This document shows, one piece after another, positions 3,808 to 60,293 of a stretch of DNA of 62,206 nucleotides. This DNA is from Nemertoderma westbladi (Eukaryota; Animalia; Xenacoelomorpha). The notes below the pieces were generated by a model. The model was given only the letters and a program-made list of their open reading frames with translations. It did no database searches and was not told where the DNA came from. Both the position numbers and the translations under genes were made by a program. The DNA lies in NCBI GenBank assembly GCA_032718475.1, contig JAUCBJ010000987.1, forward strand, positions 1-62,206, given 5' to 3'. Within the stretch, counting starts at the first letter, position 1. Every line of letters starts with the position of its first letter.

Positions 3808-3819
3808 TATATCCTTTAA
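3808..3819 (-). promoter_or_regulatory. Non-tRNA primer-binding-site candidate of A1 (sense TTAAAGGATATA)
   Basis: Flush with the LTR end, lacks TGG, and is the exact inverted match of 4580-4591 inside the LTR. Confidence 0.65.
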
Positions 3820-7455: not shown

Positions 7456-7519
7456 GAAGGCTTGACGACGCGTACGAAACAATTACTCCGGTCGGGATTG
7501 ATCCGTCGATCCCGTCACA

Positions 7520-32027: not shown

Positions 32028-32290
32028 TCTACTAATTCTGCTGACTCTACTAACTATACTAACTACACTAACTCTACTAACCCTCTAACTCTACTAACTC
32101 TCCAACTCTACTAACTCTCTAACTCTACTAACTCTCTAACTCTCTTACTCTACTAACTCTATAACTCTCCAACTCTACTAACTCTCTAACTCTACTAACT
32201 CTACTAACTCTCTAACTCTACTAACTCTATAACTCTCCAACTCTACTAACTCTCTAACTCTACTAACTCTCTAACTCTACTAACTTTACC
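32028..32290. repeat. (CTCTAA/CTCTACTAA)-type microsatellite
   Basis: Visible directly in the sequence. Confidence 0.9.
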
Positions 32291-32297
32291 AACCCTA

Positions 32298-32575
32298 ACG
32301 GTACTATGTACCCTCTTACTCCCGTGGTATGTTTATATACCACACTCCCTATACTTCTAACTCTAACAGTACTATGTACCCTCTTACTCCCGTGGTATGC
32401 CTATATACCACACTCCCTATACCTCTAACTATCTACTAACGGTATTATGTACCCTCTAGCCTCCCGTGGTATGCCTATATACCACACTCCCTATACCTCT
32501 AACTACCTACTAACGGTACTTTGTACCCTCTTACTCCCGTGGTATGCCTATATACCATACTCCCTATACCTCTAT
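32298..32575. repeat. 68-74-bp tandem repeat x4 with internal hairpin
   Basis: TGTACCCTCTTACTCCCGTGGTATG units near 32301, 32369, 32442 and 32516. Confidence 0.85.
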
Positions 32576-32745
32576 CTGCCTACTTACTTACTACTACATA
32601 CTATCTACTATTACTTTCTTTTTCTAACTTTCTATTTATTTCACTTCTTTATTTTTATTTTTTTTATTTTTTTTATATTTTGTGTGGGAAGGGCGTCTCG
32701 CCCTCAATCCCACCCCCCTCAGTCCAACACTTGGACGACTAAACT

Positions 32746-34000: not shown

Positions 34001-34106
34001 CCCGACGAAGATGTTGTTTATATGTTTATATATATATGTAAAGGTTATGAGGTCTCGGGACCGGTACTAATGCTTTACTCCGATATAACGGTGTTACTTA
34101 CATTAG

Positions 34107-35426: not shown

Positions 35427-35658
35427 ACTCTCTGTGGTGCAGCAGTAGGTACCAGGGTCCGGGACCGGGGTAGGCAGAAGGCAGGTAGGTGGTAGGTACT
35501 ATCTGTAATATGGCGGTACCAGTTTCAGTGTTTACCAGTTGTAGGTTATGAAATTGGCAGACTCACCGTAAGTCACCATATAATAGGTGGGAGCTGCTGC
35601 TTATATAAGCCACTGCTTCCAGTATATTTTATTATTTTTGCCATTTATTATTTATATA

Positions 35659-37418: not shown

Positions 37419-38535
37419 AATTTATTTTATAGTTGAATGCCTATCACGATAATAACAGTTAAAGTAAGTCTAGGGGAAATCAGTATCAACTGTCAGTCTC
37501 GTAGTTACCGATATTGCTACTCAATGTAACATGGTATATATCTAGTATTAGAATACCGGTATACACCTATAGTATATATAACAGTATTATTACAGACTAT
37601 GATCAGTCACAGAATACCGGTATATAAGTTTAGCCTAATTTATATAAATATATAATAAGCTTACTGTAAACACCGGTAATGTCAATAATTTAATAATAAC
37701 TGATTATCCAAATTTTAGGAATTATTTCCCTTTACTTTATGGCTGATATTAAGCAGTAGGTTCTACTGATATTAAGACCTTTTGATGTATAATAGGCCTA
37801 TTAATTTATAAATCTGATTGAGTTAATTTATAAATATATATATATATATATATACCCGTGATGGGTTTTGTCAATATTTGAAATAAATGTTATTATTTCT
37901 GAGTAAGAAGTCACTACACAGAGGCTGGACGCTCTCAGTGGAGTGCTACTTGTTAAGACACTAAATACTGATAATTCTACTTAACTAAGTTACTTATCAC
38001 TACAAATTACTTACGTATCGGGTTAAGATTACACAATCTCTAAATAAACAATGAACAAGTTAAAGTACAATTTTTAGGGTAATTTAACAAGAAATTTACG
38101 AACCAGACTAACAAAGAGTTAGAATTTCTGGTTCTTACAGACTGACAGGAATTGAGGTATTTTGAAACCACTAAAGTAGTATTCAGTACGTTGTGTTGTC
38201 CAGATAAGGAAATGCCACCGCCTGACTGCTTATAGTCTACACTATACGCACTACTTACCCAGAGTGTCCTATACCTAGAGATTACTTATCGAAGCCAACT
38301 ATAGCTAATGGACCTATTAACCACGTTACAACACAAATATACTGCCTACGCACTAAATTAACTTTCAGGAAAGCACTGTACTCTAAACCCTAAATTAGGT
38401 ACTAGCTCTTATACAATATATAACTTACAGTTAAATATATGTGAACAGCCAAAAGAGCCACGGTATCTGCTGGAGTGACCGGAGCACTAAAACACCAGTC
38501 TGTCCTACTCCAAGCAGTCCTGAAGTAGTACCGGG

Positions 38536-40717
38536 TGATAAACAACCGCGACCTCTATACTAACAGCAGAACTGTTGAACAGACAAATACCCGTTAATAT
38601 CCTTCTGCCAACCTAATGAGCTCTCGTCTAACCAATAAGACACAAAGACTGCTCTACTGTTAAGTAAAGGGGATCAGGAGCGTGATATTACTAAATTGTA
38701 AAGGTTGCTAAATACAAAACCGCTACTTACCGTTAGATGGCGCTAATCTGCCGTCCGCTAATATATTTACTAAATTTACACAACTCCTGCAAAATCGCTT
38801 GTTCCTTTCTCTACCGATCGTTCGATAGAGAGCTAACTGTTCGAATCTATGAGCCACGCGGGAATAACCAAAACAATAAACCCGAGTCGGCTCCCTAAGC
38901 TTACTTAAGACGAGTGCGAGAGGCTTTGCACTCAGAGTATTCTTACGCCTAATTTTACCACTATCAAAGCACGCTATTGCCTACGTCCTTTCTAATCGCG
39001 AATACTGGGGGTTCCCTAACGTAATGTGTGAATGCGAGAATATTTAAAATATCAAAATGGTACAGTATTTGTCTTTACGTGGATAGTATCACTCTGGGTC
39101 TAAACTTGCCTGCCGCTGGCTTTAGGCCAGCAAATTACTAGCGTGTTGTGTGTACCGAATAGTGCGATCTAGCTGATTGCCCGCTAATGCAAATAACCGC
39201 TCAGCGTGAATAGTTTACAGTACTCTAATTATTACCTTAGCTACTCTCCGCTATGCTGCGTACTAATTCCTAATTTTTACTAATCAATTACAGTCACAAA
39301 TATGTAACAGCGTACTAATTACTAAGAGTTCCAGAACGCGTAATTCTAATTTACTACGCAACAGGTTTCGCTAGTAACAGCCTAAATTGCCGTATTACTT
39401 TGACCTAATCAGTAACTAATTGTTGTAACTAAGAAATAGAAATCAATCAAAGAGAAAGGGGCGCCTACCTAAACATTCATAATCATAGGCACACTTCAGT
39501 ATCACACCAATCAGCATCAGCAATCACAGTTCGCAATTATGCAGTTAACTACTGTATAGCTCACAATTATGCGATTCACTATTCGTACTCCACACTCAAC
39601 GTTATAATACGCGCAGGCCTCTCCCGGATACATCTAGGCTTCCTAACTAACCCGATTCCTGCCCCCCTAATACTAAATAGAGACGAAACCTGGATCATCA
39701 GCCCCCTAGTTACTGTACCGGCGAATGGTCTGCGTGTTACAGTGCAAATGCCCGCCCGCAACGGTGAACCAGCGTTGCCCGTCTTTGAATCCTCCGCTCT
39801 CCCCTAGTCGCTCAACCCCCCGATGTGCCCACCGCCTACTGGCACCTTAGCCCTCATTATGCTAATAGCTACCGTAGCGGCACATGCAAATCACAAAGTC
39901 TGACAGTCTCAGAAATCCCTTAGGATTATTGCGTAGAAAGGAATCACATAGAACCATTAACAAAGATAGAAATCATAGTTCCAGTTGTAATTAGCAGTAA
40001 TCGATAGGATTAATTGAGAAACACAATCAAGAATAATCGCACTAGCAAATCATTTGGAGAAATTAATCGAAAACAGCAAATTGCAGAAATACGCTAAAAT
40101 ATCAGTCAAAAAATGAATAGAGACAGCTCAGCAAGTACAAGGGTGATAGATAGAGCTCTACCGGCACACCGCCAATTTATAGGTGATCCGAGTGGGATGA
40201 TGCAATAGGGTGACTCAATCGCTCTCCTATTGGCTCTCCAGTCCGCGCTAGCATTAAACCAAGCTGGAAGCAGTTAGTCCAATAAGGAGGCCGGATTGTA
40301 GCCCTATTGCTCCCCAAACCTCAAATTATTACCATATATGGTAATGGATCATGTTCCTGGCTGCTGAATGGCCAGGACAGCATCCCTATATGCTAGCCCT
40401 ATTGAAGCTAATATCAGCAAGCACGAAATCCAGGGTCCGAATAAACTTGCTACCCTGGAACTATCTACATATATCCTAATACAAAATTACGTAGGTAGGG
40501 CTACATATTATACAAAATGGATGGATTCAAATATATGGGCGTTTTGGTTTCCCTATCTAAATATCATTGTGCTATTATGCCTTATCTAAAATATTATGCT
40601 GCACAACGGACTAATATTGCGTACAGTATAACGGACTAATATATTATACTGTATAATGAACCAATATATTATACTGTATAATGGCTAATAATGTGTACAG
40701 CGCCATATACCGTAACA
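38536..40717 (-). repeat. 3' LTR of C (2182 bp)
   Basis: Near-identical direct repeat of 55087-57241, with a few substitutions and short indels. Confidence 0.95.
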
Positions 40718-41206
40718 CCGCTCCAAGGGAAATCATATAATGTTTCCCTCCAATTGTAGAAGAGTATAAGGTGATGTATACAAACAAAATAAATTTCTTT
40801 CAAATAATCTAAATAACACAATAATTCTACTATTTACAAATATTGCCATAGATATTGCATAATGAATTTACATACAAATTAAAATTACAAAAATATTATC
40901 TCTCTCAATGTTAACGATTATTACATACAAATTAAATTTACAAAAATACTGTTTCTCATTCGCACTACATAATGATTACTACATACAAGATCAAATATAA
41001 AATTTTGCTAGGGCAAGTGAAAGGAGTAAGCCAAACCCGCAGGTTTGTCTCCCCAATCACTTCCTTCGCCTCTCTCATAATATAAATTCAAATAATTGCG
41101 CAACTAGTGTATATGAGTCTAGTCGGATATTTCTAAAATGCTACAATATACATCAGAGCGACGATGATGTATATATCTAGAGTCTGTCGCCCTGTGATAC
41201 GATGCA

Positions 41207-44200
41207 TTAACGACCCGCTCCTGGGTTCTTCGGGCTCGCTCCTCTCTTTCGCCCCCTGCCCAGATACACCAATCGTCCTCTAGTCGACTCTGTTGATGGC
41301 GTCCGTGAGGCGTCACTCCCCGGAACCGGCGACGATGTTCCCTGAGCCCCGACAGACTCCCGGCTCGTACTTCTCCCTCGGCCTCGTCCCAATTGTCGTG
41401 CTCCCGTGGTCGCTTCCGCCAACTCTTCCTTATGCAGTTGCACACGCGCTTTTTCAGACGCTCCCTGCGCCTTGCGCTGCAACCTTTGCGCTTCTATAAT
41501 AGCGTGATAGTGGTCGTCCTTGACTTGATGCTTGTCTTGGACCCCTCCTCCTGGTTCTTTCCGCGAGCTTTGAGCTCCAGCGGTCGTCGCTGTGGTCGCT
41601 GCGATCCTCTGTTCCTCTATCCTCTCAGCGGTCAATGACCCCACTGGCACATGAGTCAACAGGAATTCGTTGCGGTATTGTATAGCCGCCATCCTCCAAT
41701 CACCTCGCGCGCGTACCACTTTTCTAGTCTCCGTAAATACACCCTTCGTGATGCGATCGCAAATAGCAACGAAGTTCCAGGTGTACTTATTGTCCATATT
41801 CAATTGTCTGAAGTATTCTCGGACTACGATAACTCCAGTGTTCTGTGGAAGGTCTTGAGCAGTTAGGATGAGTTCCTGATATTGTGGTAGCGATTGTAGA
41901 TATGGCTCGTACGCAACATGCGATGGGTCTACCGCCCAAAATCCATACCCCGCCTTAAATGGTAACCAACGCATCTGCGCTTGAATATGGTAATCAGCCA
42001 CACTCTCCCACTTATCTAACATCTCCCGAAGTAGGTTAGCGCTATGGTTTTGAAAGGAATCATCTCGCAGCTGACATCTCGCGCTACGATGTCCCTTTAC
42101 CCCACAATATCCGCATTGAGAAATGAAGACGGTGCACGTGTGAAACGAATGGTCGGTCTCATTACACCAACGACAGACCTTATGCGGCGCCTCTACTACC
42201 GCGTCGCACGACTTTAGATTGTGCCTTGTGCTGCCGCACAACTTGCACCTACGCGCTTGTGGAAACCAGGCCCTCTCGTATATGAGGTCTCCAATCGGTT
42301 TCGCACTTCCTTCTTTCCCAATGTCTAATACGATGTCGTCCTCTCCGGTCAACGGTTGTCGATCCGGAACAAAGTAAACATCCTCGCCCTTGTCCTCTAT
42401 CTCCAATATTTCCTCCCGCGTTCGTTTTGGATGTCTTCTCCACCGGAAGATCTACTCCGAACATCTCTACTAATGTCTCCGGCCAGCCCTCCTTAACAGG
42501 TCTATCAGCCTCCGAGTGGAAGGGAGTACCAAACCCGCGGGTTTGATTCCCGAACCACTTCTCCAAAGCTTCTGGCGTCGGATACTCCATCGACGGTCGG
42601 TCTCCCAAATCTCCGATGTTCTGTCGATATACTCCTTCGAATATCGCTAATCCTCTCCTAACCATCGACGTATTCTCTAACGATTGGTTGAAGAACGGGG
42701 TTAAGAAACGCTTCATCACGTCGGATTGGATTCCCCCTTTCGAGCGAACGTATTGATCTCCTCCGTATACCAATGGATGACGCTTCAAAACTCGCGCAAC
42801 GATATCCGCTAATAAACAAGTCACCGTGTTCGACTCAAGCACCAAATAATATTGTAGCGACGCACGGGGTGGCGCGCAAATGTTCCAATACACTAACGCT
42901 TGCCGCTTGAAGTGGGATTTGAACTCCGCTCCCGGTGGCATGTTGTATTCACCATACGCCTCCTCGTACTTCTTCTGCGTCTTTAACTTAAAGTCCCAAT
43001 TATACAATAAGTGTGCTATAAAGCCCATACCAGTCTTGGCAGAGTTGGGATACTCCCTATAAATTCCAATATCCTGTGCCCATAGCAACAATAGCTTGGT
43101 GTCGACAAACGGTCTCGGCAATCTATCTTCCAGATCAGTCATGGCGTTGAAGTCACTCTCCAAATCGCTCTGGACTCCCGATCCTACCTTGACGTAATCT
43201 TGGTTGAGAATAGCCTCTCTAACTTTCTTGGGTAGCATCCTGGCGTCGATACGCTCCGCTCCGTGCATACCTCCAAAATCGGTTCCCTAGGATCCTTCCC
43301 CTTCCGATATTGTGTCGTTATGATGGGCTCCGGTCTCTCTCGATCCGCCCTCACACGCATAAACACATGAGTCACACCATCGGCCGCACGAATTTGAATG
43401 CACTTGCTAGTCAAACATTCTTGATGGGACCCTCCTTCATTATCATAAAACATCACCCTCCAATCTTGCAGTGATTCCTCCGTTTTCCTCCACTGACGCT
43501 GAATCTCGTCTGATGGGGTCCACATGCGCTCGATCGCCTTGTGGTCATCATATCGGGTATAAGAACCCTTCCTCCTCAGCCACGTCTGGTCTACCTCCTC
43601 GTTGTCTGGGAATGTAGCCACCGCGACCCATACCTTGATGTACTTATCCAACCATCCGAATAGTTTGCTCTCCTTCCCCGGAGCTCCAATCTTATCCAAT
43701 GTGTCGTAATCTGTGATCTGCATTGGGACATCACGCAAGAACTTCGCGCATAAAACTTCCCGTAGACAGTCAACGTTCCAATGGTCCGCCATTCTTACCA
43801 TCGGCAAGAATCGTATCGCTTCTCGCGACTCCGGATGATCTACTAATATCGCAGGTTCGGTGCCGTCGGAATAATACACTGGTCGGGGTTGAGATACGAC
43901 CTGTGGAACAAATCCGGTCACTCTCCTCGTCTCCTCTTGATGTCTATCCGCGGTCTTATTATACTCCGCTATCCTATTCTCAACTAACTCTTTCGCCTTC
44001 GCCGCTCGCTCCTCCTGCCGCAACGCGTCTATGTCGTCCTGATGCTCGGGCGTGAGGGTTCTCACTCGGTGAGGTGAAGTAAACGCAGTCCAGGGACTCG
44101 AGAGCTCCAAACCCGCGGGTTTGGTACCCGAGTCCCGTGCCGCTTCGCGCCGCGCCTCTAGATCCTTATAGGCTCGGTACAGCGAAATGGCCGCTGCCGT

Positions 44201-44896
44201 CTCTATCAAACTGGGTGTCGAACAGGGTTTAATCTCCGTATACGGATCTAATGTCGTAACGGTCGGCGTAATGGGTCTCGGAGGTCGCTTTCCGCTGAAG
44301 TCGATACTGATCATCGGGTTGCTCATCGGGTAACCTCCCTCGTTGTATCTAAGGAATTGGTGAGCTGGACATCGCGTTAATATCGGTTCTGGATGTTGCT
44401 CGTCTAGTCGATCGGGAATCGCCACGTCCTGTTTATTCATGCATTCACCACACTTGTAGAACAGCTTGTACACGCTGAAGACTTTCGGCGTCTCCTGATC
44501 CTCGCCTCGAGTCCTCCGGTACAGATGCATTCCATCGAACTGATCTCGGACTGCAGGTAGCGGCTCCTCGTGTCGTAAATACATATTCATATGGTATAGT
44601 CGTGCGATTTCCTCGTCCGGATCTGCGCTGATGTCACACACGTCCAAAGCGAAATCGTAGGGATACCGAGTGCGATACTCTCTCCGCAAAACTTCCATCC
44701 GGTCCCCCAACGCTCTCATTCTTTCCCTCCGTAATTCCTTATCATAAGTCGGTTTGTATTTCCCGTTTAGCTCCATCACGGACCGCCCATGGTAGTAAAC
44801 GTTAGAGTCTTTACATCCTGGTCGCGCGAATGGTAGCTCCGCCTCCTCTCTGGCAGTAAATCCTCTGCGCGGTTGCGCTCTAATATCCTTCTCCAT
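41207..44896 (-). pseudogene. ORF3 of C: unknown N-terminal region, DEDDy 3'-5' exonuclease, three CCHC knuckles and basic tail (two frameshifts)
   Basis: VMFYDNEG; LPKKVREAIL...VKVGSGVQSD; FVDTK; KTGMG; W...QYYLVLES. Knuckles CKLCGSTRHNLKSC, CRWCNETDHSFHTC and CGYCGVKGHRSARC. Confidence 0.72.
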
Positions 44897-45663
44897 TATG
44901 CCTCGCGTATATACATATATATATCCCAATAAGTGCCGTTACGTAACCAATTACACTGTGGGTAAATCAGTTAGATGTCGCCGAAAGACAGACCTCCCGA
45001 ACCCCCCCCCCCCCCCCCCCGCTTTCCAGCAGTTCAGGTTCGACTCTCTAGATCCCGTCTCTTCCTAACTAACTATCCTCTAACCTATTCCCATGCATAG
45101 CGCAAAAACTTTGGAGATAAACTGGCCGTGACCAACTCACTTTTTGATGCCCAAACTACTCCCATTACTCGTACTAAACTACAGTAGTTAGAAAGGACCA
45201 TAGCCACAATACTCGACTATACCAAACCCACAGGTTTGATAATCGAATATCACACATCCTGCAAACTACTGAGTGGGGTCCATGTACGCCTCTGGTGCTA
45301 CTAACCTTTAGCACCTTAGTTGCACTGTTGGCACCAATCTGTGGAAGTTGCTAAACTCAATTTACACTCCTACGTAATATAGCCGTCACCATGGTTTCTA
45401 AATGCTATTTTCCAGGCTTCACGACTTTTCAAATTACTGTTTATCTATAGACGAATTCTAAAACGCGTCTATACACAGCGTCTGGAATTGTCTTGGGTTC
45501 ACTTCTAATTTTTAAAATTTTAAATTTTCCAAAATTTTTGAAAATAAAATTTTGTTTTGATACCCACCAGACAAAACTCAACGCAAATCACCACAACCCC
45601 GCTCCTATGCATTTCCTTGTATTTGCATACGAGGAATGCATACGAAGTGAGTTGCGTCCAACA

Positions 45664-47889
45664 CTAATTCTGTTTTGAGGCAGGAGACAAATTATAATCT
45701 CCCGTCTCGATGCGTGTCTCCTCTAATAACACGATATCTTGGACCGGTCGGTCCAAGGTGTGCAAACCATTAGTTTTACACTTTTTTGGGTGCGGACACT
45801 TGCACCTAATTTTCACAGTGACTGTGCGCACTATGTTTTGCACGTCTGGGTGTGTGTGCAAGATCACTCCTGTCTCCCAATACTTTCTCTTGACAATGGG
45901 TTCGGTTATCAATACGTAGTCTCCCCTTTGGAGACTCCGAACCGTTTTGTACCACTTTGTTCTGGTGGATATGGTGGGAAGATAGTATTCCCGCCAATAT
46001 TCCCAGAATGTGTACGCAACAAATTGAGTCATTTTCCAGCTTTTACGACTATATAGGTCGGCACTAATGGGTTCTGATGCCGGCACAAGAAATGCTGGAC
46101 TCTGCATTAGCAAATGATTCGGCGTTAATGCAACACCGTCTGGCAACATAGCTATCGGCCTCGAGTTTAGGGTATGCTCGATTTCAATGAAAGCTGTGAC
46201 CAGTTCGTCATCGGTAAGTTGTTTGTTTACAGGCAACGTTTTGGCAATGGCCTGCTTTACAGAGCGAACTAAACGCTCCCAACTTCCTCCTCTCCAAGGA
46301 CTTTCTGGAGTATTAAATCTCCACTCTACTCTTTGCGGCAAAAGTGCTGCAGAAATTTCCTTATTCTGTGCTGCTTTATGAGCCGCGTTCAACTCGCTAT
46401 TCCCTCCGACAAAGTTTGTACCCTTATCGGAGTAGAACGCCTTTACTAGTCCTCTCCTGGCCATAAATCTCTTTAAGGCCAGGAGCAGAGATTTGGTCGA
46501 CATGTCTGCCACACGCTCAATGTGTATGGCTCTACTAGCCATGCATGTCAGTAGCAGACCCCATCGCTTGTGGGTCAGCCGTCCACTCTTTGCTTCAATC
46601 GGACCAAAACAGTCCACCCCTGTGTTCGTAAAGGGTGGGTCATATGCCTGCACTCTCGCTTCCGGGAGTTCAGCCATCTCCTGTTCCAATACTCTGGCGT
46701 TCACCCTCTTGCAAACCAGACAGGCGTCGTACATAGTGCCGACTGCCCTGCTTGGCTGCAATAGAATGAATCGCTGTCTCGCTGCCGACAGACAGTGTAA
46801 CCTTCCCGCGTGATGCAACCTCTTATGTATATCCCATAGAATCGCTCTTTGCAATTCTATTGGGTGACTAGGGATTATCACTGGGAACCGAAACTGTGAG
46901 TTTATGTCGACAGTCTGGATTCTCGATCTATGACAAATCAAACCCTTATGGATTAATGGACTCCATTTTCTAAGGGGTTTATAGAGAACTGGTCGTTGAG
47001 CCGATAATAGATGGAATTCTTTTGGGAAGGCACACATTTGATAATGCTTCAAATGCCTTAACTCCGCTTGATCAATCTCATCCTCTGTCAGAGGTTGTTT
47101 CAATTTCCGAATTCGCTCACTATTGGCGCTCGATGGTTCTCTCAAATGTTTCGAATGTTTTAAACAAAGGTACGAAACGTATCGGCTTAACCACGCAGTT
47201 CTTTTACAAATTGTCAGCCAAGAGGCAGACGAATTTAGTAATTTGTCATAAATACTGCATGACTCTAATGCCAGCGACGGTTGTCCGCTAATTAATGGAA
47301 GTTTCGAATCCAAACCCGCAGGTTTGGAAACCAAAGGATCCATCGTGTCGGTCATTTTCTGTCCATCACTTACCAATTGTGACTCCGGTTTAGTCTGTAA
47401 GGGTGGTTTTATGTCGTAACTTACCCTTCCGGACCTAGTAGTCACGTAAGTCTGTTGGTCTGACAGGTCTCCGGGCCGCTCCAATGACTCTTCAGGCCGC
47501 TCAAATGACTCTTCAGGCCGCTCCAATGACTTAAGTTTGGCCTTAGACTTCGACTTAGAGACTTTCTCCACCTTGACTTCTGCATCTTCAGGCATCGGAT
47601 TGGTCACTATCTTTAGTCGCTCTGGCCAATGTTCCTGTGTCCTCGTTAGAAAATCAGGTCCATGCAACCAAAACTCCTGCGACTCTTCCTGACAGAATTC
47701 CGCCGGCATTGCACCTCTCGAAGTTATGTCGGCCGGATTCAACACTCCCAGACAATGTCTCCATTGTTCCTTCGTCGAAAAGTCGACGATCTGAGCGCGT
47801 CTATTGGCCACGAATGTCTTTAGTGCAATATTGTCGGCCGCAATGTATACTAACACTAAGGATGCGTCCGTCCAATAGAATAAGGTCAA
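45664..47889 (-). CDS. pol 3' part: RNase H C-terminus and integrase
   Basis: YWTDAS, NPADITSRG, HHAG...CLVC, GVDCFGP, SDKGTNFVG and GGSWERLV motifs. Confidence 0.95.
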   Translation of the reverse strand: MTLFYWTDASLVLVYIAADNIALKTFVANRRAQIVDFSTKEQWRHCLGVLNPADITSRGAMPAEFCQEESQEFWLHGPDFLTRTQEHWPERLKIVTNPMPEDAEVKVEKVSKSKSKAKLKSLERPEESFERPEESLERPGDLSDQQTYVTTRSGRVSYDIKPPLQTKPESQLVSDGQKMTDTMDPLVSKPAGLDSKLPLISGQPSLALESCSIYDKLLNSSASWLTICKRTAWLSRYVSYLCLKHSKHLREPSSANSERIRKLKQPLTEDEIDQAELRHLKHYQMCAFPKEFHLLSAQRPVLYKPLRKWSPLIHKGLICHRSRIQTVDINSQFRFPVIIPSHPIELQRAILWDIHKRLHHAGRLHCLSAARQRFILLQPSRAVGTMYDACLVCKRVNARVLEQEMAELPEARVQAYDPPFTNTGVDCFGPIEAKSGRLTHKRWGLLLTCMASRAIHIERVADMSTKSLLLALKRFMARRGLVKAFYSDKGTNFVGGNSELNAAHKAAQNKEISAALLPQRVEWRFNTPESPWRGGSWERLVRSVKQAIAKTLPVNKQLTDDELVTAFIEIEHTLNSRPIAMLPDGVALTPNHLLMQSPAFLVPASEPISADLYSRKSWKMTQFVAYTFWEYWREYYLPTISTRTKWYKTVRSLQRGDYVLITEPIVKRKYWETGVILHTHPDVQNIVRTVTVKIRCKCPHPKKCKTNGLHTLDRPVQDIVLLEETRIETGDYNLSPASKQN

Positions 47890-47936
47890 TGTCGTGTCTA
47901 ACTCCTCAATTATCTGCTTACTTACCTCGACCGAAA

Positions 47937-49493
47937 CTACAGCGCCTGTAACTCTGCACGAGGGACAGTCATGTATTTGACCGGCATTGTCTTTGATCTA
48001 GAAGTCACAAAGGCCGTCTCAAACTTGTCCTGACTTACCTCTCGGCGAAGGTAGGCTACCATACCAAAGCCGGTGTCACTTGCGTCACTAAATAAGTGGA
48101 GTTCGAGATCAGCTGGAAATACCAGCTGATTCGGAAAGTAGGAACGGGGTACATCTATATTTTTCAATAGATGCAACTCGGCTTCCCACTCCCTCCACTG
48201 CTTTGCATGTATAGGAGATATTGGTTCGTCCCACTCTACGTCGGACAACCAAATTTTCCTCATGCACGCTCGTGCCTGTAATATAACCGGACTGATAAAG
48301 TTCATTGGGTCAAATAGTCTACTTAATGTCGATAAGCAAATCCTCTTTGTCAAAACTTTGTCTGGGCTACTGGGCTCAAATCTAACTCTTACCTGGAACT
48401 TATCCGTATTCGGGTTCCAAGCGAGTCCCAGTACTCGCGCCATGGGGATTGGTTCTACCCCCAATTCTATGTCTCCGCTCCCGCGATCTTTCACCGGGAA
48501 CGATTCTAATAGGGCCTCCGAGTTAGTAGTGAACTTGGTCAGAGGAAATCCCCCTGTAGCCAAGCACTCTTGCAGGCCGTGAGCCACTTCTATGGCTTGT
48601 TCCGCCGTGTCCTTGGACACCAATCCGTCGTCCATGTAGAAGTTTCTCAAGATGGACTCGATAACCTCTACTGGGTACTTACCAATCTGGGCTGTTGCCG
48701 TTTTCTTTAAAACGAACAGCGTGCCATTTGGACTATCGCGGGCGCCAAATATCCTAATGTACATCTGGTATGTAACCACTGGGCCGGATAAGTCTTCATT
48801 CTCATACCAGAGAAAGCGAAGGCTATCCTGGTCTGCCTTACAGGCTCTTACCTGGTGGAACATCGCCTCGATGTCACAAGTAAATGCGAATCGCCGCTGT
48901 CTAAAACGCAACAGTATTCCAATCAAATAGTTATTCAGGTTGGGACCATCCATCAACTCTGAATTCAGGGACATACCTCTGTAGACTGCTGCGCAGTCGT
49001 TGACTACTCGGACTTTGTCAGGCTTGTCAGGGTGAGTCACATAGTGGTGTGGAAGGTAATAAGTCTGGTCTGTCACTAAGTCAGGGTCCTCTACCTTCCC
49101 AGCAAATCCCTTGGCGAAATAGTTGTTGATCTGGGCGCAATACTTCTCCCTAATGTCCGGATTCTTTAACAACCGAGCCCTTACTCCGTTTAATCTTTTC
49201 AAGGCTAAGTTGTAGTTGTTCTCCAACTTAGGTGGTTGTCGACGCCACAACATTCCAACTTCAAAATGTCCAGTCGGTAGCAGACGTATGGTATCTTCCA
49301 TCATCTCCAGCGACAGTTTCTCATCAGTAGACATGGCTAGGTCATATCCACCGGGTTCCATTGCGTCCCTATCCAGCCATTCGACGGTTCTGGCTCCTGT
49401 CTCGAGGTCCTGGCGTATCAATTCCTTCTGTAGCTCCTCCTCACTGTATTGGAAAATGTCTAGGTCTCGATATTTAGCCACTTGACCCTCCAC
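47937..49493 (-). CDS. pol: reverse transcriptase and Pao RNase H N-part
   Basis: YYLPHH, KVRVVND, DIEAMFHQ, FYMDD, LHLFSDAS and PRAEL motifs. A 1-bp deletion lies near 47942. Confidence 0.95.
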   Translation of the reverse strand: MEGQVAKYRDLDIFQYSEEELQKELIRQDLETGARTVEWLDRDAMEPGGYDLAMSTDEKLSLEMMEDTIRLLPTGHFEVGMLWRRQPPKLENNYNLALKRLNGVRARLLKNPDIREKYCAQINNYFAKGFAGKVEDPDLVTDQTYYLPHHYVTHPDKPDKVRVVNDCAAVYRGMSLNSELMDGPNLNNYLIGILLRFRQRRFAFTCDIEAMFHQVRACKADQDSLRFLWYENEDLSGPVVTYQMYIRIFGARDSPNGTLFVLKKTATAQIGKYPVEVIESILRNFYMDDGLVSKDTAEQAIEVAHGLQECLATGGFPLTKFTTNSEALLESFPVKDRGSGDIELGVEPIPMARVLGLAWNPNTDKFQVRVRFEPSSPDKVLTKRICLSTLSRLFDPMNFISPVILQARACMRKIWLSDVEWDEPISPIHAKQWREWEAELHLLKNIDVPRSYFPNQLVFPADLELHLFSDASDTGFGMVAYLRREVSQDKFETAFVTSRSKTMPVKYMTVPRAELQAL

Positions 49494-52400
49494 TATCTGG
49501 GTTCGCTATCTGTCTGGTCATTGTGGAGTGGTTCCGACAACCTAACATTATCGGGAATCAACTCCTCGTCCGACTCGCTAAAGTCACTATAGTGGTCAAT
49601 ACAGGTTCTCCTAAACTCGTCTATGTCTGGTGGTTCTACTAATGGTGGTTGAGTTATAGGCTGTAATTCTTCGCATCTGTCTATTGGCTTGTCGCCACCT
49701 GTAAACTCATAAGACATGGGTACTCTTGTATACCAACCTAGTATGGTCCTATGGGCATGTGGTCCGTTGACATGCGGCTCAGCTGGTCTTGTTTCCCATA
49801 TTTGGTGTGCGATCAGCTGTTCTGCACCAATCAACATAGAAACATTCCTATAACCTACCTGGTGTCTGGGTATCCTGAGCTTGTCAAAATACTCCTGTGC
49901 TATGGGACTCATCGGCGGCACCTTACCTAACTGCCTGCCGAATCCCTTCATAGCTAGACACTTAAATCCGTCCAATGGCAAAGCTTTCCGTTCTTGTCGA
50001 GTGTGTCGGTCTCTCGGAAGTAGGGAGTCTAGTTCCACCGAAATTCTGTGTCCCTTGAGGTCACCTACCCCATGCATAGACTTCAACTCTATTTGGATCT
50101 CCTCTGCGTCCTGGAAGCTAGAAACAGCTCTCGCCACTTCCTCGTCGATATACGATAATGTGGACGCAGTGTCCAACATCACATATATTCGCTTTGATCC
50201 CTTATCTCCAGTAAGTTTCACTGGAATCACGCTGAATATTTCCGACGTGGCCGATGATAAATACGTCCGCGCGCTGGTCGATGAACTATCCGCAGTGAAA
50301 CCTTGGCAGGTCACTTCTCTCGCGCTCGACTCGCCATCCTCGTCCGACGAACCTGGTTGGTAACCATCGTCCTGGATGCCAGTGTACGTATTCCTCCTTA
50401 TCGATACGGGTTCTTTGCTCCCCTTCCTGTGAGGATTTCGCTGTAAGTAACGGTCCGTTGGGGTATGGAAATCCGCATGTAGCAACTTGTGATGTAGTCT
50501 GCCGCATTCCATGCATCCGTCCTTGCTGTTCGGGCACTGCCGCCGTACATGACCTGGCGCAAGACATGCCCAACAGGTGTCCAACGTCCGCACTTGAACT
50601 CTTCTTTGTTCCGAATTTAATTCTTTGAACCGTCTGCAACTATCTAACTTATGGTCGTCAGATCTTACCTCCTTTAGTAAACAGTATTGGCAACCTACAA
50701 ATCCATCCGGCAACTCCTGTTGCTTTAACCTAGGTTTATCTAACCGCTCACCTGACCATACTCGCGAGTCTGATCTAAAGGCTGGGGTACTCGAATTATA
50801 TTTGTCTACTGAGTTAAATGTCACAGTGGTCCTGTCATCGTCAAAACTTACCATAGACTTACCGGTAACAGGTTTAGACTCTCTCATATTCTCTTCTGAG
50901 AAGTTTGATTTCATCTCTGCTACTGCGTCTGTGGCTATCATGTCATGAATATGCTGAAGTGTCAATACTTTACCTTGGCCCTCCAACTTATTCTCTAATT
51001 TGCGCCATTTCTGTCTGTAACGCATGTTTAAACGTCTTATTACGCTCTTTAAAACTTCGGCGTGATCACCATGATGAGGTAGATTCACCGTCTTCAAGAT
51101 GTCCAATGCGTTCGAAATAGCGTTCGCTAAGTTCAACAGCTCTAACGGAGTTGTAATCCTTTCGCCCTTACCCAAGTCTTCTACTATCGACTGCGCCATC
51201 TTGGTTTTATTCCCGTAGATGTCACTAAGCGTCTTCATCGCTAACTCAAATGCTCTCTCATTGCCGACGAAGTTGTCAGCAATGGCTCTAGGTTCTCGAT
51301 GGAGCATCTGAAGCAAATAGTTGAACTTCTCGTTGGGAGTAAAGGTGCTGTTGGTCAGCTGCTCGTCGACATAGGTTTTGAAGGTCCTCCAGTGCTTGTG
51401 GTTGCCCATAAACTTCTGGGGTTGTTGCGTCGGCAGTCCTTGCCTAGCAGCAAACTTACCTATGTCCCTAAGGGTTGCGTCGTTCCGGGTTAACAAATGG
51501 TTTAGTTCCGCAGGGTTGTTAAGTCTGGTCCTTTCCCGGTGGTTCAAACTTACCTGCTCCGCGTCCGTCCTTCTTTCCTTATAGTTTCGGAACTTCTGAC
51601 GTCTCATGTCTTCCTCTTCATCGCTTGACTCGGTGTCAGTCCTTAGCGCTCGCGATGGTTTGCGCGCCGAGGCCCTGACCCAGGCCTCCTCAATAAATCT
51701 TTCCGCCGAATTTTCGAAATTGGGATTATGGTTATTTGGGACAGGCGTCCTTACCTGAGGTCTATGTGGTATAGTCTCCTCCGATATGCGTACTCGTTGA
51801 CTAGGCTGGACTTTGTCTAACTCAGGCCTGCTAGGATTTGAATTACTTCTTACCTGGGCTGCTTCCTTTAACCGTAGGTTGCTAAGCATGTCCGTTATAG
51901 GTTGGATGTGCGGCGATATAGCTTGCGCTAAACTAGCACTTAACTCATCCCTCGTAATAAATTCCTGGCTAGGGTTCTGTTGTATAGTCGGCTCTATCTG
52001 AGTAATCCGCTGTCTCTCATATGATCCCTCTTCCGGTTTAACCCGGAAGTTCTCCGTCGAACTGGGTCGGCGCTCCATCCGCGTATTCCAAACCCGCGGG
52101 TTCGGTTCGCCCAATACTCGTCCCGTTGGAGTTTCTTCTCTAAATTCTCCGTTGTCTCGTTCGGTATACAGTGGTGCGGTGTTCCGATGACGTAGATCCT
52201 GCGCGATAGGTGAAGCACTAATACCAACTGGCGTGCGATATGTAGAGAATGGTTTAGCGATCCGTGTACTCGTAATAGCCGGACCGGGTATAGGAATTCT
52301 GGTCGTCGTCGACTCGCGTATGGTCGGAGTTCTCGCTTCCTGTTCGGCCTTCTGCAGTGCGAACAGTTCTCGCAACTCGGTCCCTACACTCGCCCCACAT

Positions 52401-53893
52401 TCTTCGATCATTCGCATCCCCTTCTCGGCGATTTCATTCGCCTTCCTGGTCCGTTCTTCGCTCTCTAAATCTAATCTCGCACTTTCCAACTGCGCCAGTT
52501 TACGTTCTTCTTCTTCCCTCGCTCGTCTCGCTACGCCCTCTTCTTCCAGTCGCGCCTTTTCTTCATACAACATCTGTCGCTCCTTCTCGATCTCGAGTTC
52601 GCGTTCTTTCCGTTCGCGTTCGAGTTGGAGTTCGCGCTTCTTCGCTTCCTGATCGCGTTCGAGTTGGAGTTCGCGTTTCTTCGCTTCCCGTTCGCGTTCA
52701 AGTTGGAGTTCGCGTTCCTTCTGTTCGCGTTCCGCTTGCTCACGCTTACCTTTGTCTTCCAACTCCCGCAACTTTGCGTCTAACTTACGTGCACGCTCCC
52801 GTTCCCGCTCAGCTTCCTTCCGTGCTTCCGATGCACGCAAAACTTCCGCCTGCTGTTCGTCCAGTCGGCGTCTTCTCTCCTCCGCCGAGTTGTGAGAAAC
52901 AAGGGATCTAGCACATATAACCTTCCCTCGCGCGTGACTAACCTGGGAATCGCCACTGTCTCTGGATGCATCATCGGGTGGAGTCAACGTCCTCTGTTGG
53001 ATGTTCTCCGTCGTCGGTAGCACCTGACCCGGTACCACCACTCCATTCTGCATCAGCCAGCTAGTAACTTCCCTCTGATAACGGCGCTCTTCTTTATCTT
53101 GGATCTCTTCTCGCTCCACTAAGTCTCTTAACTCTGCGTCACTCACTCGAGTCGCCTGCGCTTGTGATGCCCATAGCAGCCAGTTCTCCGTCCTAACTCG
53201 TCGGAATCGCTCCGGTAACTCGCGGTGCTCCAACAAGGCTGCTAAAACCCTGTCGTAAATCCTCGTCGCCACGTCGCTCGACTGAGACTATACTGCCTTC
53301 TTCGCTAGGACTGCAAGCTCCTCCGTCTGCTTGAATAACGCTGAGTTATATCCTCTTCTAATCTCTACTAACTCTACCCTCCCGATGTTCGCTGAGTCAG
53401 CTAACATCTTCCTTACCTTGTCCGTCGTCCGAGTTATATGTCCGGCGTGCGCGCGAAGTTTCTTCTTTATCGCAATGTCTAGTTCTCTCTCGCTTACCTG
53501 ACTCACACTCGGTGGACTTGAAGGATTATTTCGGGAACTACGGGTACTCCTTACAGCCGTCGGGACCACGGCACTTACCATACCCACAGGGCTGGAAACC
53601 GGGCTCCGGGCTCTCGCTTCTGCTACACTACCCTCCCTATCACTCACCTCCGTCCGGGCTGCTGTACAATCCTTCCTTACAGTAGTGGTAGGGGATCCTA
53701 ATACTATTACTGGAGGTTGTTCTTCTTCCTCACTAGTCACTGTCTCGTCCTCCTGTTCACTTACGTCAGCGTCGCTCGCTGCGTCGTCATAGTCGGCATT
53801 GTCGTCAACAGTAATATTTACGCTATCGTCAGTCGGCGGTCCGGCCGCCGTCTCATAGCTGTCCTCTAGTGCCTCTTTATCTGAGACACTCAT
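49493..53893 (-). CDS. gag and protease, with an in-frame TAG at 53288-53290
   Basis: ORFs 53288-53893 and 49493-53272 are in frame. Motifs KFMG..KHWRTF, CWACLAPGHVRRQC...CMECGRLHHKLLH and MLDTAS. Confidence 0.9.
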
Positions 53894-55074
53894 AGTCTAA
53901 ATAATGTTTGCCTTCCGGCAAAAATATCTCGCAAAAGTTCGAGATATAATTATAATTTAACCGAAATACGGTCAAATTAATTGTCTAATAATCAGTTGGT
54001 CCAAAATGTCAAATAAATTCGCAATGCAATATTGTGAATTTAATGGGGTATATAGTTATAGCAAATACTAGCACAATATTTAAACAAAAATATTATTATA
54101 TAGCTATTATATAGCATTAAATACCGGTATAGCACAAAATAACTTTGAATCTAATACAAAATATTCAAAATAAACTCGCCACCCGAATATTTCTAATTTT
54201 ATATATAGCTCTAATCAACGTAATTTTAATTTCAAATATTATATGTATCCACTAGCGCGTGGCTACATCTTCGGGTTGCGACTCTCTCTAACTCTCTCTC
54301 TAACTTGAGCGATTCAAAAAACCATGGCCGGCTAAACCTAAATATCCTAACTAATAAATTGAGTTCAGCTTCGCAGTTAAACAACCGATAATTTTTTACT
54401 GCTTCCACAAACACACTGGTGCCAACAGAACAACTAACCTTGTTTGCTGTGAGATTCCACGTCCGCGTCCAAAGATTCAGGCTCTCCGCTGATTGCAAAC
54501 CGAACCCGCAGACCCACACGAACCCCAAACTCAGAAGTTCCGTCTTGCCATGTATCTCCAGATGGTATAAAATAACTAAGCGGTTACCTAACATACCGGT
54601 ACAAAACTCTAGAATTTTACAAAATAATTTTGACCGAAACTGAATTCTCGCAAACCTAGCTAAAATTTTCAAAAAAAACTTACTAATTACAATTTGCCCT
54701 AAGGCCTAAGGAACTGCTGTATTCGCAATTAGCAAAAACGCACTACCGTACTTCCACTGTACGCAGTACAGTAAGTAAAACAGTACACCAACCTAACAGC
54801 CTAATTGATACTGTGTGTGTGGTACGGCAAACAAATGTCCTTCTACCGTACGCAGTAACAGCAATCAGCCTAATGTACTACTGTACTATCGTACGCGACC
54901 AGTGAATACAGTAATCTAAACTAACAGCCTAAAGGAATATACTCAATGTCTTACTGTACGCTAGCCTATAGCCTACAGCAGACGATCACGTGCTCTAATT
55001 TATTACTTAATACTGTGATACTACTATCAGCCTAAGAATACACTATTGACTGCTGCAAGCAACAGCCAATAAAG

Positions 55075-55086
55075 TGCGCGTATTAC
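55075..55086 (-). promoter_or_regulatory. Non-tRNA primer-binding-site candidate of C (sense GTAATACGCGCA)
   Basis: Flush with the 5' LTR. 11 nt form an inverted match to 56156-56166 and 39605-39615. Confidence 0.65.
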
Positions 55087-57241
55087 TGATAAACAACCGC
55101 GACCTCTATACTAACAGCAGAACTGTTGAACAGACAAATACCCGTTAATATCCTTCTGCCAACCTAATGAGCTCTCGTCTAACCAATAAGACACAAAGAC
55201 TGCTCTACTGTTAAGTAAAGGGGATCAGGAGCGTGATATTACTAAATTGTAAAGGTTGCTAAATACAAAACCGCTACTTACCGTTAGATGGCGCTAATCT
55301 GCCGTCCGCTAATATATTTACTAAATTTACACAACTCCTGCAAAATCGCTTGTTCCTTTCTCTACCGATCGTTCGATAGAGAGCTAACTGTTCGAATCTA
55401 TGAGCCACGCGGGAATAACCAAAACAATAAACCCGAGTCGGCTCCCTAAGCTTACTTAAGACGAGTGCGAGAGGCTTTGCACTCAGAGTATTCTTACGCC
55501 TAATTTTACCACTATCAAAGCACGCTATTGCCTACGTCCTTTCTAATCGCGAATACTGGGGGTTCCCTAACGTAATGTGTGAATGCGAGAATATTTAAAA
55601 TATCAAAATGGTACAGTATTTGTCTTTACGTGGATAGTATCACTCTGGGTCTAAACTTGCCTGCCGCTGGCTTTAGGCCAGCAAATTACTAGCGTATTGT
55701 GTGTACCGAATAGTGCGATCTAGCTGATTGCCCGCTAATGCAAATAACCGCTCAGCGTGAATAGTTTACAGTACTCCAATTATTACCTTAGCTACTCTCC
55801 GCTATGCTGCGTACTAATTCTTAATTTTTACTAATCAATTACAGTCACAAATATGTAACAGCGTACTAATTACTAAGAGTTCCAGAACGCGTAATTCTAA
55901 TTTACTACGCAACAGGTTTCGCTAGTAACAGCCTAAATTGCCGTATTACTTTGACCTAATCAGTAACTAATTGTTGTAACTAAGAAATAGAAATCAATCA
56001 AAGAGAAAGGGGCGCCTACCTAAACATTCATAATCATAGGCACACTTCAGTAACACACCAATCAGCATCAGCAATCACAGTTCGCAATTATGCAGTTAAC
56101 TACTGTATAGCTCACAATTATGCGATTCACTATTCGTACTCCACACTCAACGTTATAATACGCGCAGGCCTCTCCCGGATACATCTAGGCTTCCTAACTA
56201 ACCCGATTCCTGCCCCCCTAATACTAAATAGAGACGAAACCTGGATCATCAGCCCCCTAGTTACTGTACCGGCGAATGGTCTGCGTGTTACAGTGCAAAT
56301 GCCCGCCCGCAACGGTGACCTCCCCGCCAGCGTTGCCCGTCTTTGAATCCTCCGCTCTCCCCTAGTCGCTCAACCCCCCGATGTGCCCACCGCCTACTGG
56401 CACCTTAGCCCTCCATTATGCTAATAGCTACCGTAGCGGCGCATGCAAATCACAAAGTCTGACAGTCTCAGAAATCCCTTAGGATTATTGCTTAGAAAGG
56501 AATCACATAGAACCATTAACAAAGATGTAGCAGTAATCGATAGGATTAATTGAGAAACACAATCAAGAATAATCGCACTAGCAAATCATTTGGAGAAATT
56601 AATCGAAAACAGCAAATTGCAGAAATACGCTAAAATATCAGTCAAAAAATGAATAGAGACAGCTCAGCAAGTACAAGGGTGATAGATAGAGCTCTACCGG
56701 CACACCGCCAATTTATAGGTGATCCGAGTGGGATGATGCAATAGGGTGACTCAATCGCTCTCCAGTCCGCGCTAGCATTAAACCAAGCTGGAAGCAGTTA
56801 GTCCAATAAGGAGGCCGGATTGTAGCCCTATTGCTCCCCAAACCTCAAATTATTACCATATATGGTAATGGATCATGTTCCTGGCTGCTGAATGGCCAGG
56901 ACAGCGTCCCTATATGCTAGCCCTATTGAAGCTAATATCAGCAAGCACGAAATCCAGGGTCCGAATAAACTTGCTACCCTGGAACTATCTACATATATCC
57001 TAATACAAAATTACGTAGGTAGGGCTACATATTATACAAAATGGATGGATTCAAATATATGGGCGTTTTGGTTTCCCTATCTAAATATCATTGTGCTATT
57101 ATGCCTTATCTAAAATATTATGCTGCACAACGGACTAACATTGCGTACAGTATAACGGACTAATATATTATACTGTATAATGAACCAATATATTATACTG
57201 TATAATGGCTAATAATGTGTACAGCGCCATATACCGTAACA
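55087..57241 (-). repeat. 5' LTR of C (2155 bp)
   Basis: Sense TGTTACG...TTTATCA. Candidate TATAAA near 56713-56718. Confidence 0.95.
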
Positions 57242-57884
57242 CCGGGGGTTAATTTAACTATAACAGTATGCATAACAAGCATAATTACTGTAAGGAATAA
57301 ACTTGGGGACATGAAGGTTGCAATTACTTGCATAAACTCTGAATAATAAATATTACGCTACCCGTACAGACTATTCAAATAAAACACAGACCAAATGCTG
57401 GCAAGTTACCGTCAAGCCTAAATAAACCACAGTATATGCAATCTCCGAAATGGTTAGTTAGTAAGCGTTCTAGACTACATAGTACGACTTATTCCTTCGC
57501 GGAGGGTTTACCTTATAGCACTGGATGCCTCAACTTTCCTAACTAGCACTTTATCGGACAGACACTCTACATACACTGCAATCTCCTCAGACCTAACAAC
57601 AATCAGACAACAATCCGGCCTACAAGTTATTTATACAATCTGAGCAGGCTTACACGCCTTCTGCTCAATATTACACTTACCGATAAATAAAACTGACAGG
57701 AATAAGTAAACCATACAAGGAGTAAAGGGGTGATCAATCCCTAATCCCCTAATAGCCTACAATATACAATATTTCCCAATCAAATAATACTGGATAAAGT
57801 ACCGGTTCGGGTTAACTAGGCCTACAATATACCGTCCGACCAGTACGTTTCGGTTTTATTGCCTACTGAGCAATAAAAGAAATA

Positions 57885-57895
57885 AAATCTATTAA
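57885..57895 (-). promoter_or_regulatory. Non-tRNA primer-binding-site candidate of A2 (sense TTAATAGATTT)
   Basis: Flush with the LTR and an exact inverted match of 58590-58600. Confidence 0.65.
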
Positions 57896-58937
57896 TGTTC
57901 GTGCTTTTAGACCTTTTAGCAGTTAACCTGCCAATTTAAATGTGCCTTTAATTATAAATCAACTTTTGCCCTTACCAATTACCTGGTGTACTGAATTTAC
58001 ATCCGCCGAAGCCAGTCCGTGCACGGCGTATGACCCATTATGTGGGAGACTGGATTCGGGTCCAGAGAAAGTTATTGCGGTGTAGGCTACTTTGTATTAT
58101 TCGATTAATCGCTACTATATAATCTCTGACAACTATATTTACTTTCGGGGAAATATTAACAGTTCCTTTAGGATGTGGCACTTTAAGTATAAAACAGAGT
58201 TATGACTTACACTAATCACAACTAGATGGCTATGGAATCTCGTAAATAGCGCATTCTTTAGGAGATGCTTTATTAACTTTCACACTAATTTTTCGACCGT
58301 CACTGATTTTGATCATATATAAGGAGGATTGTAACTCACACACGTAGGGATTATGAAATAGCATTTAATCCACACAAAAACCACTATAATTTGAGTCGCA
58401 GTTGTTACCAGTAGACCCTTCTGCTTACCTCAGTAATTAAGAAAGTTCAGGGGTTTACGATTATTCATCGGTATTTTCCAAATATAACATCCATTAATAT
58501 AAACAGCAATTAACAACAATATAAAACAGCATTAAGACAGTGCAGTGAACAGTCAGTATGTGTATGCGGTGATATGATGTGAAACAAGGTTAATAGATTT
58601 ACGTTCTTATAACTCCAGCCATCAGATGTTCTTGGGCCAAAGTCTGAAACGTTTGTACGAGTACTGAATCCCGAAAGGAATAGGATTCTCAGAAAAACAA
58701 TAACTGCGCATGCACCAATTTCCACAGGTAAGTCTCTATTGGCTTAACTGGGAACATTGCTCTGATTGGCTGAAATATACCCAAACAAAGGAACCTCCAA
58801 GTACACAAAGAATCAGCTGACAGATTTCGTCATCTTGGTTCTAATTTCTGACCGACGCGTAGTTGAACAATTTTAGGCCTTTTTAGAGTATTCAGCGCAT
58901 TGTGTAAAAATGACTTATGTCCACAAAAGCTTTTACA
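57896..58937 (-). repeat. 5' LTR of A2 (~1.04 kb)
   Basis: Homologous to 3820-5058 and 28525-28641. Followed by the TSD GACAA. Confidence 0.82.
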
Positions 58938-59217
58938 GACAACTCTACACTACTACGACTGGCAGACCTGAAATTCGGATACTGCCTTCGGTGTCCGGCA
59001 TTCAAGTTAATTAAATACACCCAAAATCATCGAAAATGGAACTAATAAAGTAACTATCACCTGAACGTGAATTTCTAATCATTTTCGAGCGCAGAAACTC
59101 AGGTGAATTACAGGACGTTTATATTTTTGTAATATAATGTATATTGATTAACATACTATACTGGGTTTACTTGTTCTAATCTGCTCGCAGTTTATATTAT
59201 AGATATACAGTATATGG

Positions 59218-60293
59218 GGATGTAGGACAATTCGGTCCCGGACAATACGGTCCCGGACAATTCGGTCCCGGACAATTCGGTCGCGGACAATTCGGTCCCA
59301 AAACACTAAATAAATGGGACCGAATTGTCCGGGACCGAATTGTCCTAGGACCGAATTGTCCTAGGACCGAATTGTCCAGGACCGAATTGTCCGGGACCGA
59401 ATTGTCCGGTTCCTGATAGCAACTTTTTAGTGCTTTTTTGATATTGGTGAATGTTCTAGAACATTAGTAGAGATATTTTTTTATGGTAGCTAGTGTTATA
59501 TACTTGCTAGAATTTTTTGAAATTTTAAAAATACTGTATTTTTTTATTTTTATTATTGGTAGTGTTCGAGAATATTGTTATATATTATTTATTAAGGTGT
59601 AGCTAGTGTTGTTACTAGCTAGCATTTCCTTGAAATTATTAAAACACTTGTGAAAACATTGATATTTCAGAATTAGGCCTAAACTGTTGCTGATTATATT
59701 AATTACCAACAATATTGATGATATTATAACAGTCCCTGAATGAGATCCACCCATTATCTAGGATAATAATTTAGGCTTGTTAACCAACCAACAACACATA
59801 CAGTATACTTACGCAATATATAAAAAAAGTCAGTTTTAAACATTTTAAATACATACCATTACTAGATAGTACATAATTCACAAGCTCCATAAAAACACCA
59901 TAGCTACGATAACTAATAATGTTAACAAAAAAAAGTAAAATTTTCTTTATTTTCAAAAAAATACTAGCTACAGTAGTAAAAAAAAACACTAGCTACCATA
60001 TAATAATATATATTAAGGTTCTAGAACATTTACCATTATATATACCAATTAAATTTGGTCCCGGACAATTCGGTCCTGGACAATTCGGTCCCGGACAATT
60101 CGGTCCCGGACAATTCGGTCCCATTAATATGCATGTTTTGGGACCGAATTGTCCTAGTCAGTATCCGGACAATTTGGTCCCGGACAATTCGGTCCCAAAA
60201 CACAAAATTAATGGGACCGAATTGTCCGGGACTGAATTGTCCGGGACCGAATTGTCCGGACCGAAGTGTCCGGGAACGAATTGTCCAGCTTCC
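59218..60293. mobile_element. MULE-type non-autonomous element with 15-bp subterminal repeat arrays
   Basis: 9-bp TSD AGTATATGG (59209-59217 and 60294-60302). Ends GGATGTAGGACAATTCG / CGAATTGTCCAGCTTCC. GGACAATTCGGTCCC arrays occur in both orientations. Confidence 0.8.

Follow-up and report, generated by a model that had tools for sequence, protein, structure and literature searches.

What primes reverse transcription in a Bel/Pao retrotransposon that has no tRNA-type primer site beside its LTR? The question is raised by element C, which lies in a contig of Nemertoderma westbladi (GenBank assembly GCA_032718475.1, contig JAUCBJ010000987.1; the whole stretch analyzed, 62,206 nucleotides, is referred to as the window). 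Bel/Pao elements are among the main LTR superfamilies of animals, and their reference description assumes tRNA priming. Specifically, the ICTV 2021 profile of the Belpaoviridae gives an 18-nt site for tRNA-Arg or tRNA-Gly, LTRs of 0.2 to 1.2 kb, genomes of 4.2 to 10 kb, and a PPT of about 10 nt, and it calls replication of the group poorly understood (PMC8742986).

Structure and classification of element C

The preliminary description had drawn the LTR boundary of C from two LTRs and a target site duplication (TSD), and both are in place: the repeats run from TG to CA, are bracketed by a 5-bp TSD, and mismatch at 10 of 2150 aligned bases, with a few indels in addition. The features of C are as follows.

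38536-57241, minus strand: element C, 18.7 kb, with TG..CA LTRs, TSD, and Bel/Pao Gag-Pol
38531-38535 (left) and 57242-57246 (right): 5-bp TSD, CCGGG on the plus strand
55087-57241, minus strand: 5' LTR, 2155 bp, TG..CA
56712-56717, minus strand: TATAAA, candidate TATA box, at LTR nucleotide 525 and 551 nt upstream of the LTR partner described below
45664-53896, minus strand: Gag-PR-RT-RH-IN, with coding interrupted by stops and a frame change
41207-44938, minus strand: three additional reading frames, located after integrase and before the 3' LTR, the last with three CCHC-like knuckles
40718-40724, minus strand: weak PPT, a 7-nt purine-rich tract with one C, adjoining the 3' LTR
38536-40717, minus strand: 3' LTR, TG..CA

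Assignment of C to Bel/Pao, proposed earlier from RT, RH, and IN motifs, is supported at the protein level. Pfam detected DUF1759, Peptidase_A17, and DUF5641, with Integrase_H2C2 just under the cut-off; Pol carries the motifs YMDD and DAS, and Gag has three Cys-His boxes. A DUF1759 Gag and the order PR-RT-RH-IN, together with Peptidase_A17 and DUF5641, are the protein characters of Bel/Pao, and like the Belpaoviridae as profiled, C is a metazoan LTR element with Gag plus PR-RT-RH-IN, a Pao peptidase, DUF1759, and DUF5641. Its closest RT homologs are about 40% identical, most of them carrying PF05380, and on an RT tree of 80 Bel/Pao-type loci, built without an outgroup or named reference elements, C falls inside on a long branch. 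It departs from the ICTV profile in having no tRNA-type site, a 2155-bp LTR, a length of 18.7 kb, a 7-nt tract, and extra 3' frames.

Searches of viral contigs with the RT, the alignment, and an LTR-end pattern returned no matches, and an Rfam scan of 53900-59200 gave one chance-level match and no ribozyme. The extra reading frames at 41207-44938 matched no Pfam family, and a PDB search with the first of them was without a match; judging from its sequence, the last looks as if it encoded a second nucleocapsid-like protein. Extra frames between integrase and 3' LTR, again without a Pfam family, also occur in the neighboring element B (30073-31494), this region spanning several kb in each element.

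The primer site of C and its LTR partner

In retroelements, the 3' end of the primer determines the U5 end of the LTR. Because the U5 end is set in this manner, the primer of C is expected to anneal no more than a few bases away from 55086. The positions concerned are listed here.

55075-55086, minus strand: primer-binding position of C, lacking TGG and directly abutting the LTR
56155-56166, minus strand: LTR partner of C, candidate self-primer, LTR nucleotides 1076-1087, complementary to the primer-binding position
39604-39615, minus strand: copy of the partner in the 3' LTR
55043-55072, minus strand: predicted 13-bp hairpin directly after the primer-binding position, -15.0 kcal/mol in a 43-nt window

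The claim that no TGG follows the LTR was borne out over the first 17 post-LTR bases of C, and with TGG missing, the tRNA-type primer site by which ICTV describes Bel/Pao is absent. We also recovered the pairing that had been reported between the post-LTR 12-mer and the LTR (56166-56155, and again 39615-39604), which consists of 11 Watson-Crick pairs and one G-U, with the G-U end flush with the LTR. The only 11-base complements of this 12-mer in the window lie at 56166-56156 and 39615-39605. When recomputed with Markov models of orders 0 to 3, the expected number of such 11-mers in the C LTR was 4e-4 to 1.2e-3, in keeping with the earlier estimate of about 5e-4 and rising roughly 5-fold if offsets of 0 to 4 are allowed. 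As a control, 4 of the 14,357 other internal 11-mers of C are perfectly complemented in the LTR; for the leader the figure is 1 of 1,788. The element's own LTR was the only primer candidate found for this site.

The candidate TATA box that had been placed near 56715 corresponds to TATAAA at 56717-56712, and GC-box-like motifs lie nearer to the partner. Folding of the whole region assigned the partner helix a probability of 0.00 to 0.88, varying with the chosen ends; since the outcome flips with the window, we dropped global folding as evidence for the helix. A splice junction was likewise considered as the source of the C partner and rejected, as none of 22 donor-acceptor pairs supplied it.

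Neighboring elements A and B

Two further 5' LTRs in the window, those of elements A and B, are followed by sequences with the same flush pairing.

57896-58937, minus strand: 5' LTR of B, TSD 58938-58942 / 28520-28524
57885-57895, minus strand: primer-binding position of B, forming 11 Watson-Crick pairs with 58590-58600
58590-58600, minus strand: LTR partner of B
3808-3819, minus strand: primer-binding position of A, forming 12 Watson-Crick pairs with 4580-4591
4580-4591, minus strand: LTR partner of A

The LTR end of B is fixed independently by a 3' remnant and the TSD, and that of A is set via homology to B; the integrase region of B carries Bel/Pao motifs. In the LTR of each of the three elements, the primer site forms its best duplex with the partner, and hairpins similar to that of C are predicted after the primer sites of A and B. 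The preliminary description had counted three 5' LTRs with one geometry and different letters. The geometry and the differing letters hold, but the three cases are not independent: the LTRs of A and B are 68 to 80% alike where alignable, and both are unrelated to the LTR of C by BLAST. Given this homology, the window provides two independent lineages and one covarying pair. Within that pair, 4 of the 12 primer-site positions differ, and three of the differences are compensated in the partner, the outermost being the exception. MAFFT placed the two partners 19 columns apart in a poorly conserved region, so that they are taken as homologous from their spacing and flanks.

In A, a TATAAA precedes the start of the partner by 11 nt, and a TATAAG is similarly located in B. 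If the motif in A is a TATA box, it would put the partner in U3, off the 5' end of the RNA; its position fits poorly with a 5'-terminal primer.

Some additional observations concern these elements. B is a whole Bel/Pao insertion (28525-58937) with its own 5-bp TSD, in which the 3' LTR is cut down to the last ~117 bp and RT is missing; it hosts another insertion at ~34000-35600 as well as C, which is nested in the leader. An interpretation of 28642-32719 as a separate LTR was rejected, as this is the 3' non-LTR region of B and the TSD of B brackets 28525-58937. In the LTR of A, a second 13-base inverted match (4622-4634 with 3885-3897) crosses the partner helix, which implies a pseudoknot or an alternative fold; no such match was found in B. 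Finally, A and B share a conserved AG/GTAAG donor-like site (~4370 and 58445, respectively, at column 612 of their alignment) about 200 nt downstream of the partner.

Variants in other copies of the C family

Six public runs from four studies, none recorded as RNA, cover part of the stretch, and the best-covering run may be the source of the window itself. In other copies of the family, G replaces A at plus-strand position 56155, with depths of 29604/29646 (X1), 132905/133134 (X2, the same sample as X1), and 27732/27732 (X3); run X4 is without coverage at this position. If the primer site of those copies equals that of C, the common variant would make all 12 pairs Watson-Crick. The preliminary description was right about the 11 Watson-Crick pairs and the G-U in C, and the G-U is a rarity of the present copy. 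Among the 40 of 303 variant rows listed, there were no primer-site changes in other copies.

Not all of the variation is favorable. Changes inside the partner at 56157 and 56163 account for 13 to 28% and 15 to 24% of depth, respectively, and they look linked, the X3 depths differing by the depth of one contig. Such linked changes would create two mismatches if they were not accompanied by changes in the primer site, and to that extent they count against a self-primer. Run X5, which was guessed to be RNA, has no LTR joint and leaves the partner without coverage; we excluded it from the evidence.

Contigs of sister families match the following block and then diverge at the partner.

56167-56226, minus strand: block 5' of the partner, possible promoter or RNA element, matched by contigs of sister families

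The loose ends of these contigs suggest other 12-mers in the same register and with the same three-letter ending.

Distant Bel/Pao relatives

The preliminary description had called for a screen of Bel/Pao relatives for complementarity between post-LTR and LTR sequence. We scanned metagenome contigs and kept the best 80 of 538 loci. The main count was made on the 13 of these 80 in which the point where two LTR copies diverge defines the LTR 3' end, leaving out 67. Post-LTR bases at offsets 0 to 4 were scored against the element's own LTR, either contiguously or across GTRAG..AG junctions. Nine of the 13 relatives have at least 10 perfect pairs to their own LTR (range 10 to 15), a count that is neither blind, as the junction rule was formulated after the pattern had been seen, nor fully independent, as L028 and L067 are related. 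Three matches are contiguous like that of C (L022, L028, and L067), and six exist only across the junction of a predicted GT-AG intron (L005, L012, L016, L017, L026, and L056). With A, B, and C included, 12 of 16 elements match their own LTR; in the controls, at least 10 pairs were reached by 1 of 240 cross-element pairs and by 7 of 864 own-leader windows.

The four misses under the strict rule differ in kind. L068 has 11 pairs across a junction, one of them G-U; L039, on visual inspection, has a comparable junction whose donor is not GTRAG; and in L037 the LTR end is unclear. L058 has a TGG site that exactly complements the 3' 12-mer of a tRNA given in a supplement of PMC13524379, and as a positive control for tRNA-type priming it scores only 4 against its own LTR.

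Nine further loci, in which no second copy fixes the LTR end, gave a junction match of 11 to 13 in four cases under the strict rule. They were left uncounted because their LTR end was picked by score and because several junctions apparent on inspection did not pass the filter for acceptor or offset. In a blind scan of the 10 loci nearest to C on the RT tree, the junction of L009 and the TGG site of L058 were recovered and L016, of the same family as L009, was missed, its contig beginning inside the LTR; the remaining loci were truncated or uninformative.

On the midpoint-rooted RT tree, which has no outgroup, contiguous types are scattered among junction types. C, on its long branch, is grouped with L058 and L016 (SH support, 0.99). 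Priming mode may therefore vary within the clade holding these three. Among junction types, a TATA box lies upstream of the partner by 31 nt (L016) or about 133 nt (L005 and L056).

Across loci, junction pairing uses the end of exon 1 and 4 to 7 bases of exon 2, with a maximum of 15 perfect pairs in L005. Junction-spanning pairing was also seen in L008, L009, L018, L036, L053, and L068.

A self-priming model and its alternatives

The reading put forward at the outset, that a self-complementary primer site is a lineage-level property within Bel/Pao, is supported by these sequence comparisons: the variant at 56155, the compensated differences between A and B, and the 9 of 13 relatives set against 1 of 240 cross pairs. 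For C, the primer is very probably encoded by the element, whichever kind of transcript supplies it. By analogy with Tf1, we also think it probable that C is primed in cis from R of its own 5' LTR. According to this model, the partner in the transcribed R of the 5' LTR would anneal to the primer site, and cleavage where the duplex ends 3', perhaps by the RNase H of the element as in Tf1, would leave a 3'-OH. From there RT would extend through about 1,070 nt of R-U5 (55087-56154) before transferring to the 3' R, with the region upstream of the cut restored from the 3' LTR. During plus-strand synthesis the primer would itself be copied and the primer site rewritten, so that both arms would stay matched while drifting. 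In several relatives, the partner would arise only by splicing an intron from the LTR, that of C, A, and B being contiguous. Since the TATA box of junction types lies 31 to ~133 nt upstream, a 5' tail ahead of the primer appears to be tolerated.

A broader version of self-priming can be offered tentatively, and we regard it as slightly more apt to fail than to hold. In this version, a broad Bel/Pao lineage would self-prime; the host spliceosome would join two LTR exons in many members, such that copying is licensed when the 5' copy, as opposed to the 3' copy, is spliced; C, A, and B would be intron-less derivatives, their primer lying inside the RNA and preceded by a capped tail; and the group would have switched between tRNA priming and self-priming.

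Alternatively, the primer could be encoded by the element and yet come from the 3' LTR partner, through circularized RNA, or from a trimmed transcript of the 5' LTR or of a solo LTR. The TATAA motifs 5 to 6 nt before the partners of A and B leave room for a partner upstream of the start or near the 3' end, and a search of the C LTR for AATAAA and ATTAAA returned neither to fix the end of R, which is compatible with a 3'-copy or separate-transcript primer. Covariation would be expected alike under such a primer. The junction relatives, however, have a TATA box upstream of the partner and would keep the intron in the 3' copy, which favors the 5' copy, and a cut in the 3' copy would presumably lose the R that is required for strand transfer. 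We consider this alternative unlikely.

It is quite improbable, in our judgment, that the duplex is structural, serving packaging, dimerization, translation control, or shielding, with a host RNA such as a tRNA half acting as primer. Bel/Pao elements are tRNA-primed according to ICTV (PMC8742986), half-tRNA priming occurs in Ty1/copia lineages according to the available part of PMC6317226, and the relative L058 has a tRNA-type site. Yet the letters of the primer site differ across nearly all scored families and track the family's own LTR, which would demand a separate host RNA for each, and the pairing ends 0 to 4 bases from the LTR end, where the primer must stop. A tRNA search within the window found 0 tRNAs.

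That the match is due to chance, or is a functionless by-product of fold-back copying, is very improbable: an LTR of 2.2 kb is long, similar short motifs are abundant, and other 11- to 13-base inverted matches occur in the window, yet 12 of 16 elements carry, in one and the same position, a match expected about 1e-3 times per site, and compensated changes and junction-spanning matches without a contiguous DNA counterpart also oppose it.

Comparison with known self-priming elements

Taken together, these considerations make it likely that C works like Tf1, even though it belongs to Bel/Pao and is no member of the Tf1/sushi group. Tf1, Tf2, and Tj1 of that group (Ty3/gypsy chromoviruses) and C all are without a tRNA site and have post-LTR sequence complementary to their own LTR over 11 to 12 bases. 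A cut at the end of the duplex is required in Tf1 and in the proposed route for C; in Tf1, RNase H cuts between bases 11 and 12, according to the accessible parts of PMC7175516 and PMC4600332. In contrast, Tf1/sushi elements have the Pol of Ty3/gypsy chromoviruses, whereas C has Bel/Pao families and no chromodomain match. The remaining difference is the possible 5' tail ahead of the C primer. As for a supporting RNA structure resembling the U5-IR of the Tf1 group, folds of C vary with the window chosen, and A, B, and C each have the hairpin predicted after the primer site. Splice-built partners like those of the relatives of C are not described for Tf1/sushi in the same parts of these two papers.

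Self-priming has also been predicted for the plant elements Tcn1 (Ty3/gypsy) and, among Ty1/copia, TAR, Houba, and Osr-1, on the basis of at least 10 complementary bases starting 0 to 5 bp after the 5' LTR (PMC6317226, available part). By the same measure C, A, and B would be classed with them, although C belongs to another superfamily and another host. The available part of that survey includes no Bel/Pao case. Bel/Pao self-priming is also unmentioned in the accessible parts of PMC3601003, PMC5443660, PMC2864245, PMC8220671, PMC554778, and PMC13524379, and in a term search of PMC3118150, primer, PBS, tRNA, and intron were all absent. Our search of openly accessible literature returned no paper on Bel/Pao self-priming of either the contiguous or the splice-junction form; an earlier mention may exist in subscription journals, in bioRxiv supplements, or among the entries of Repbase and GyDB.

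If the model is correct, Bel/Pao would be a further independent home of a mechanism with described cases in Ty3/gypsy and predicted ones in Ty1/copia. The failure of tRNA-based annotation to find a primer site in such elements would be accounted for, and LTR ends could be located by a simple rule. Furthermore, the splice-junction form would couple the onset of reverse transcription directly to RNA splicing.

Other features of the window

The remainder of the window holds several other elements. On the plus strand, 5032-7519 contains a Gag-protease fragment with a 3' end resembling the 3' region of B, and 46-bp tandem repeats follow it. A LINE-type endonuclease and RT fragment lies at 13758-16467, and a 276-aa open frame at 26192-27022, ending in a C3HC4 RING finger, could be a host or captured gene. 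Elements with long inverted ends occur at 7825-8538/18164-18873, 9744-10930, and 59199-60290, the last of which is composed of 15-bp subrepeats.
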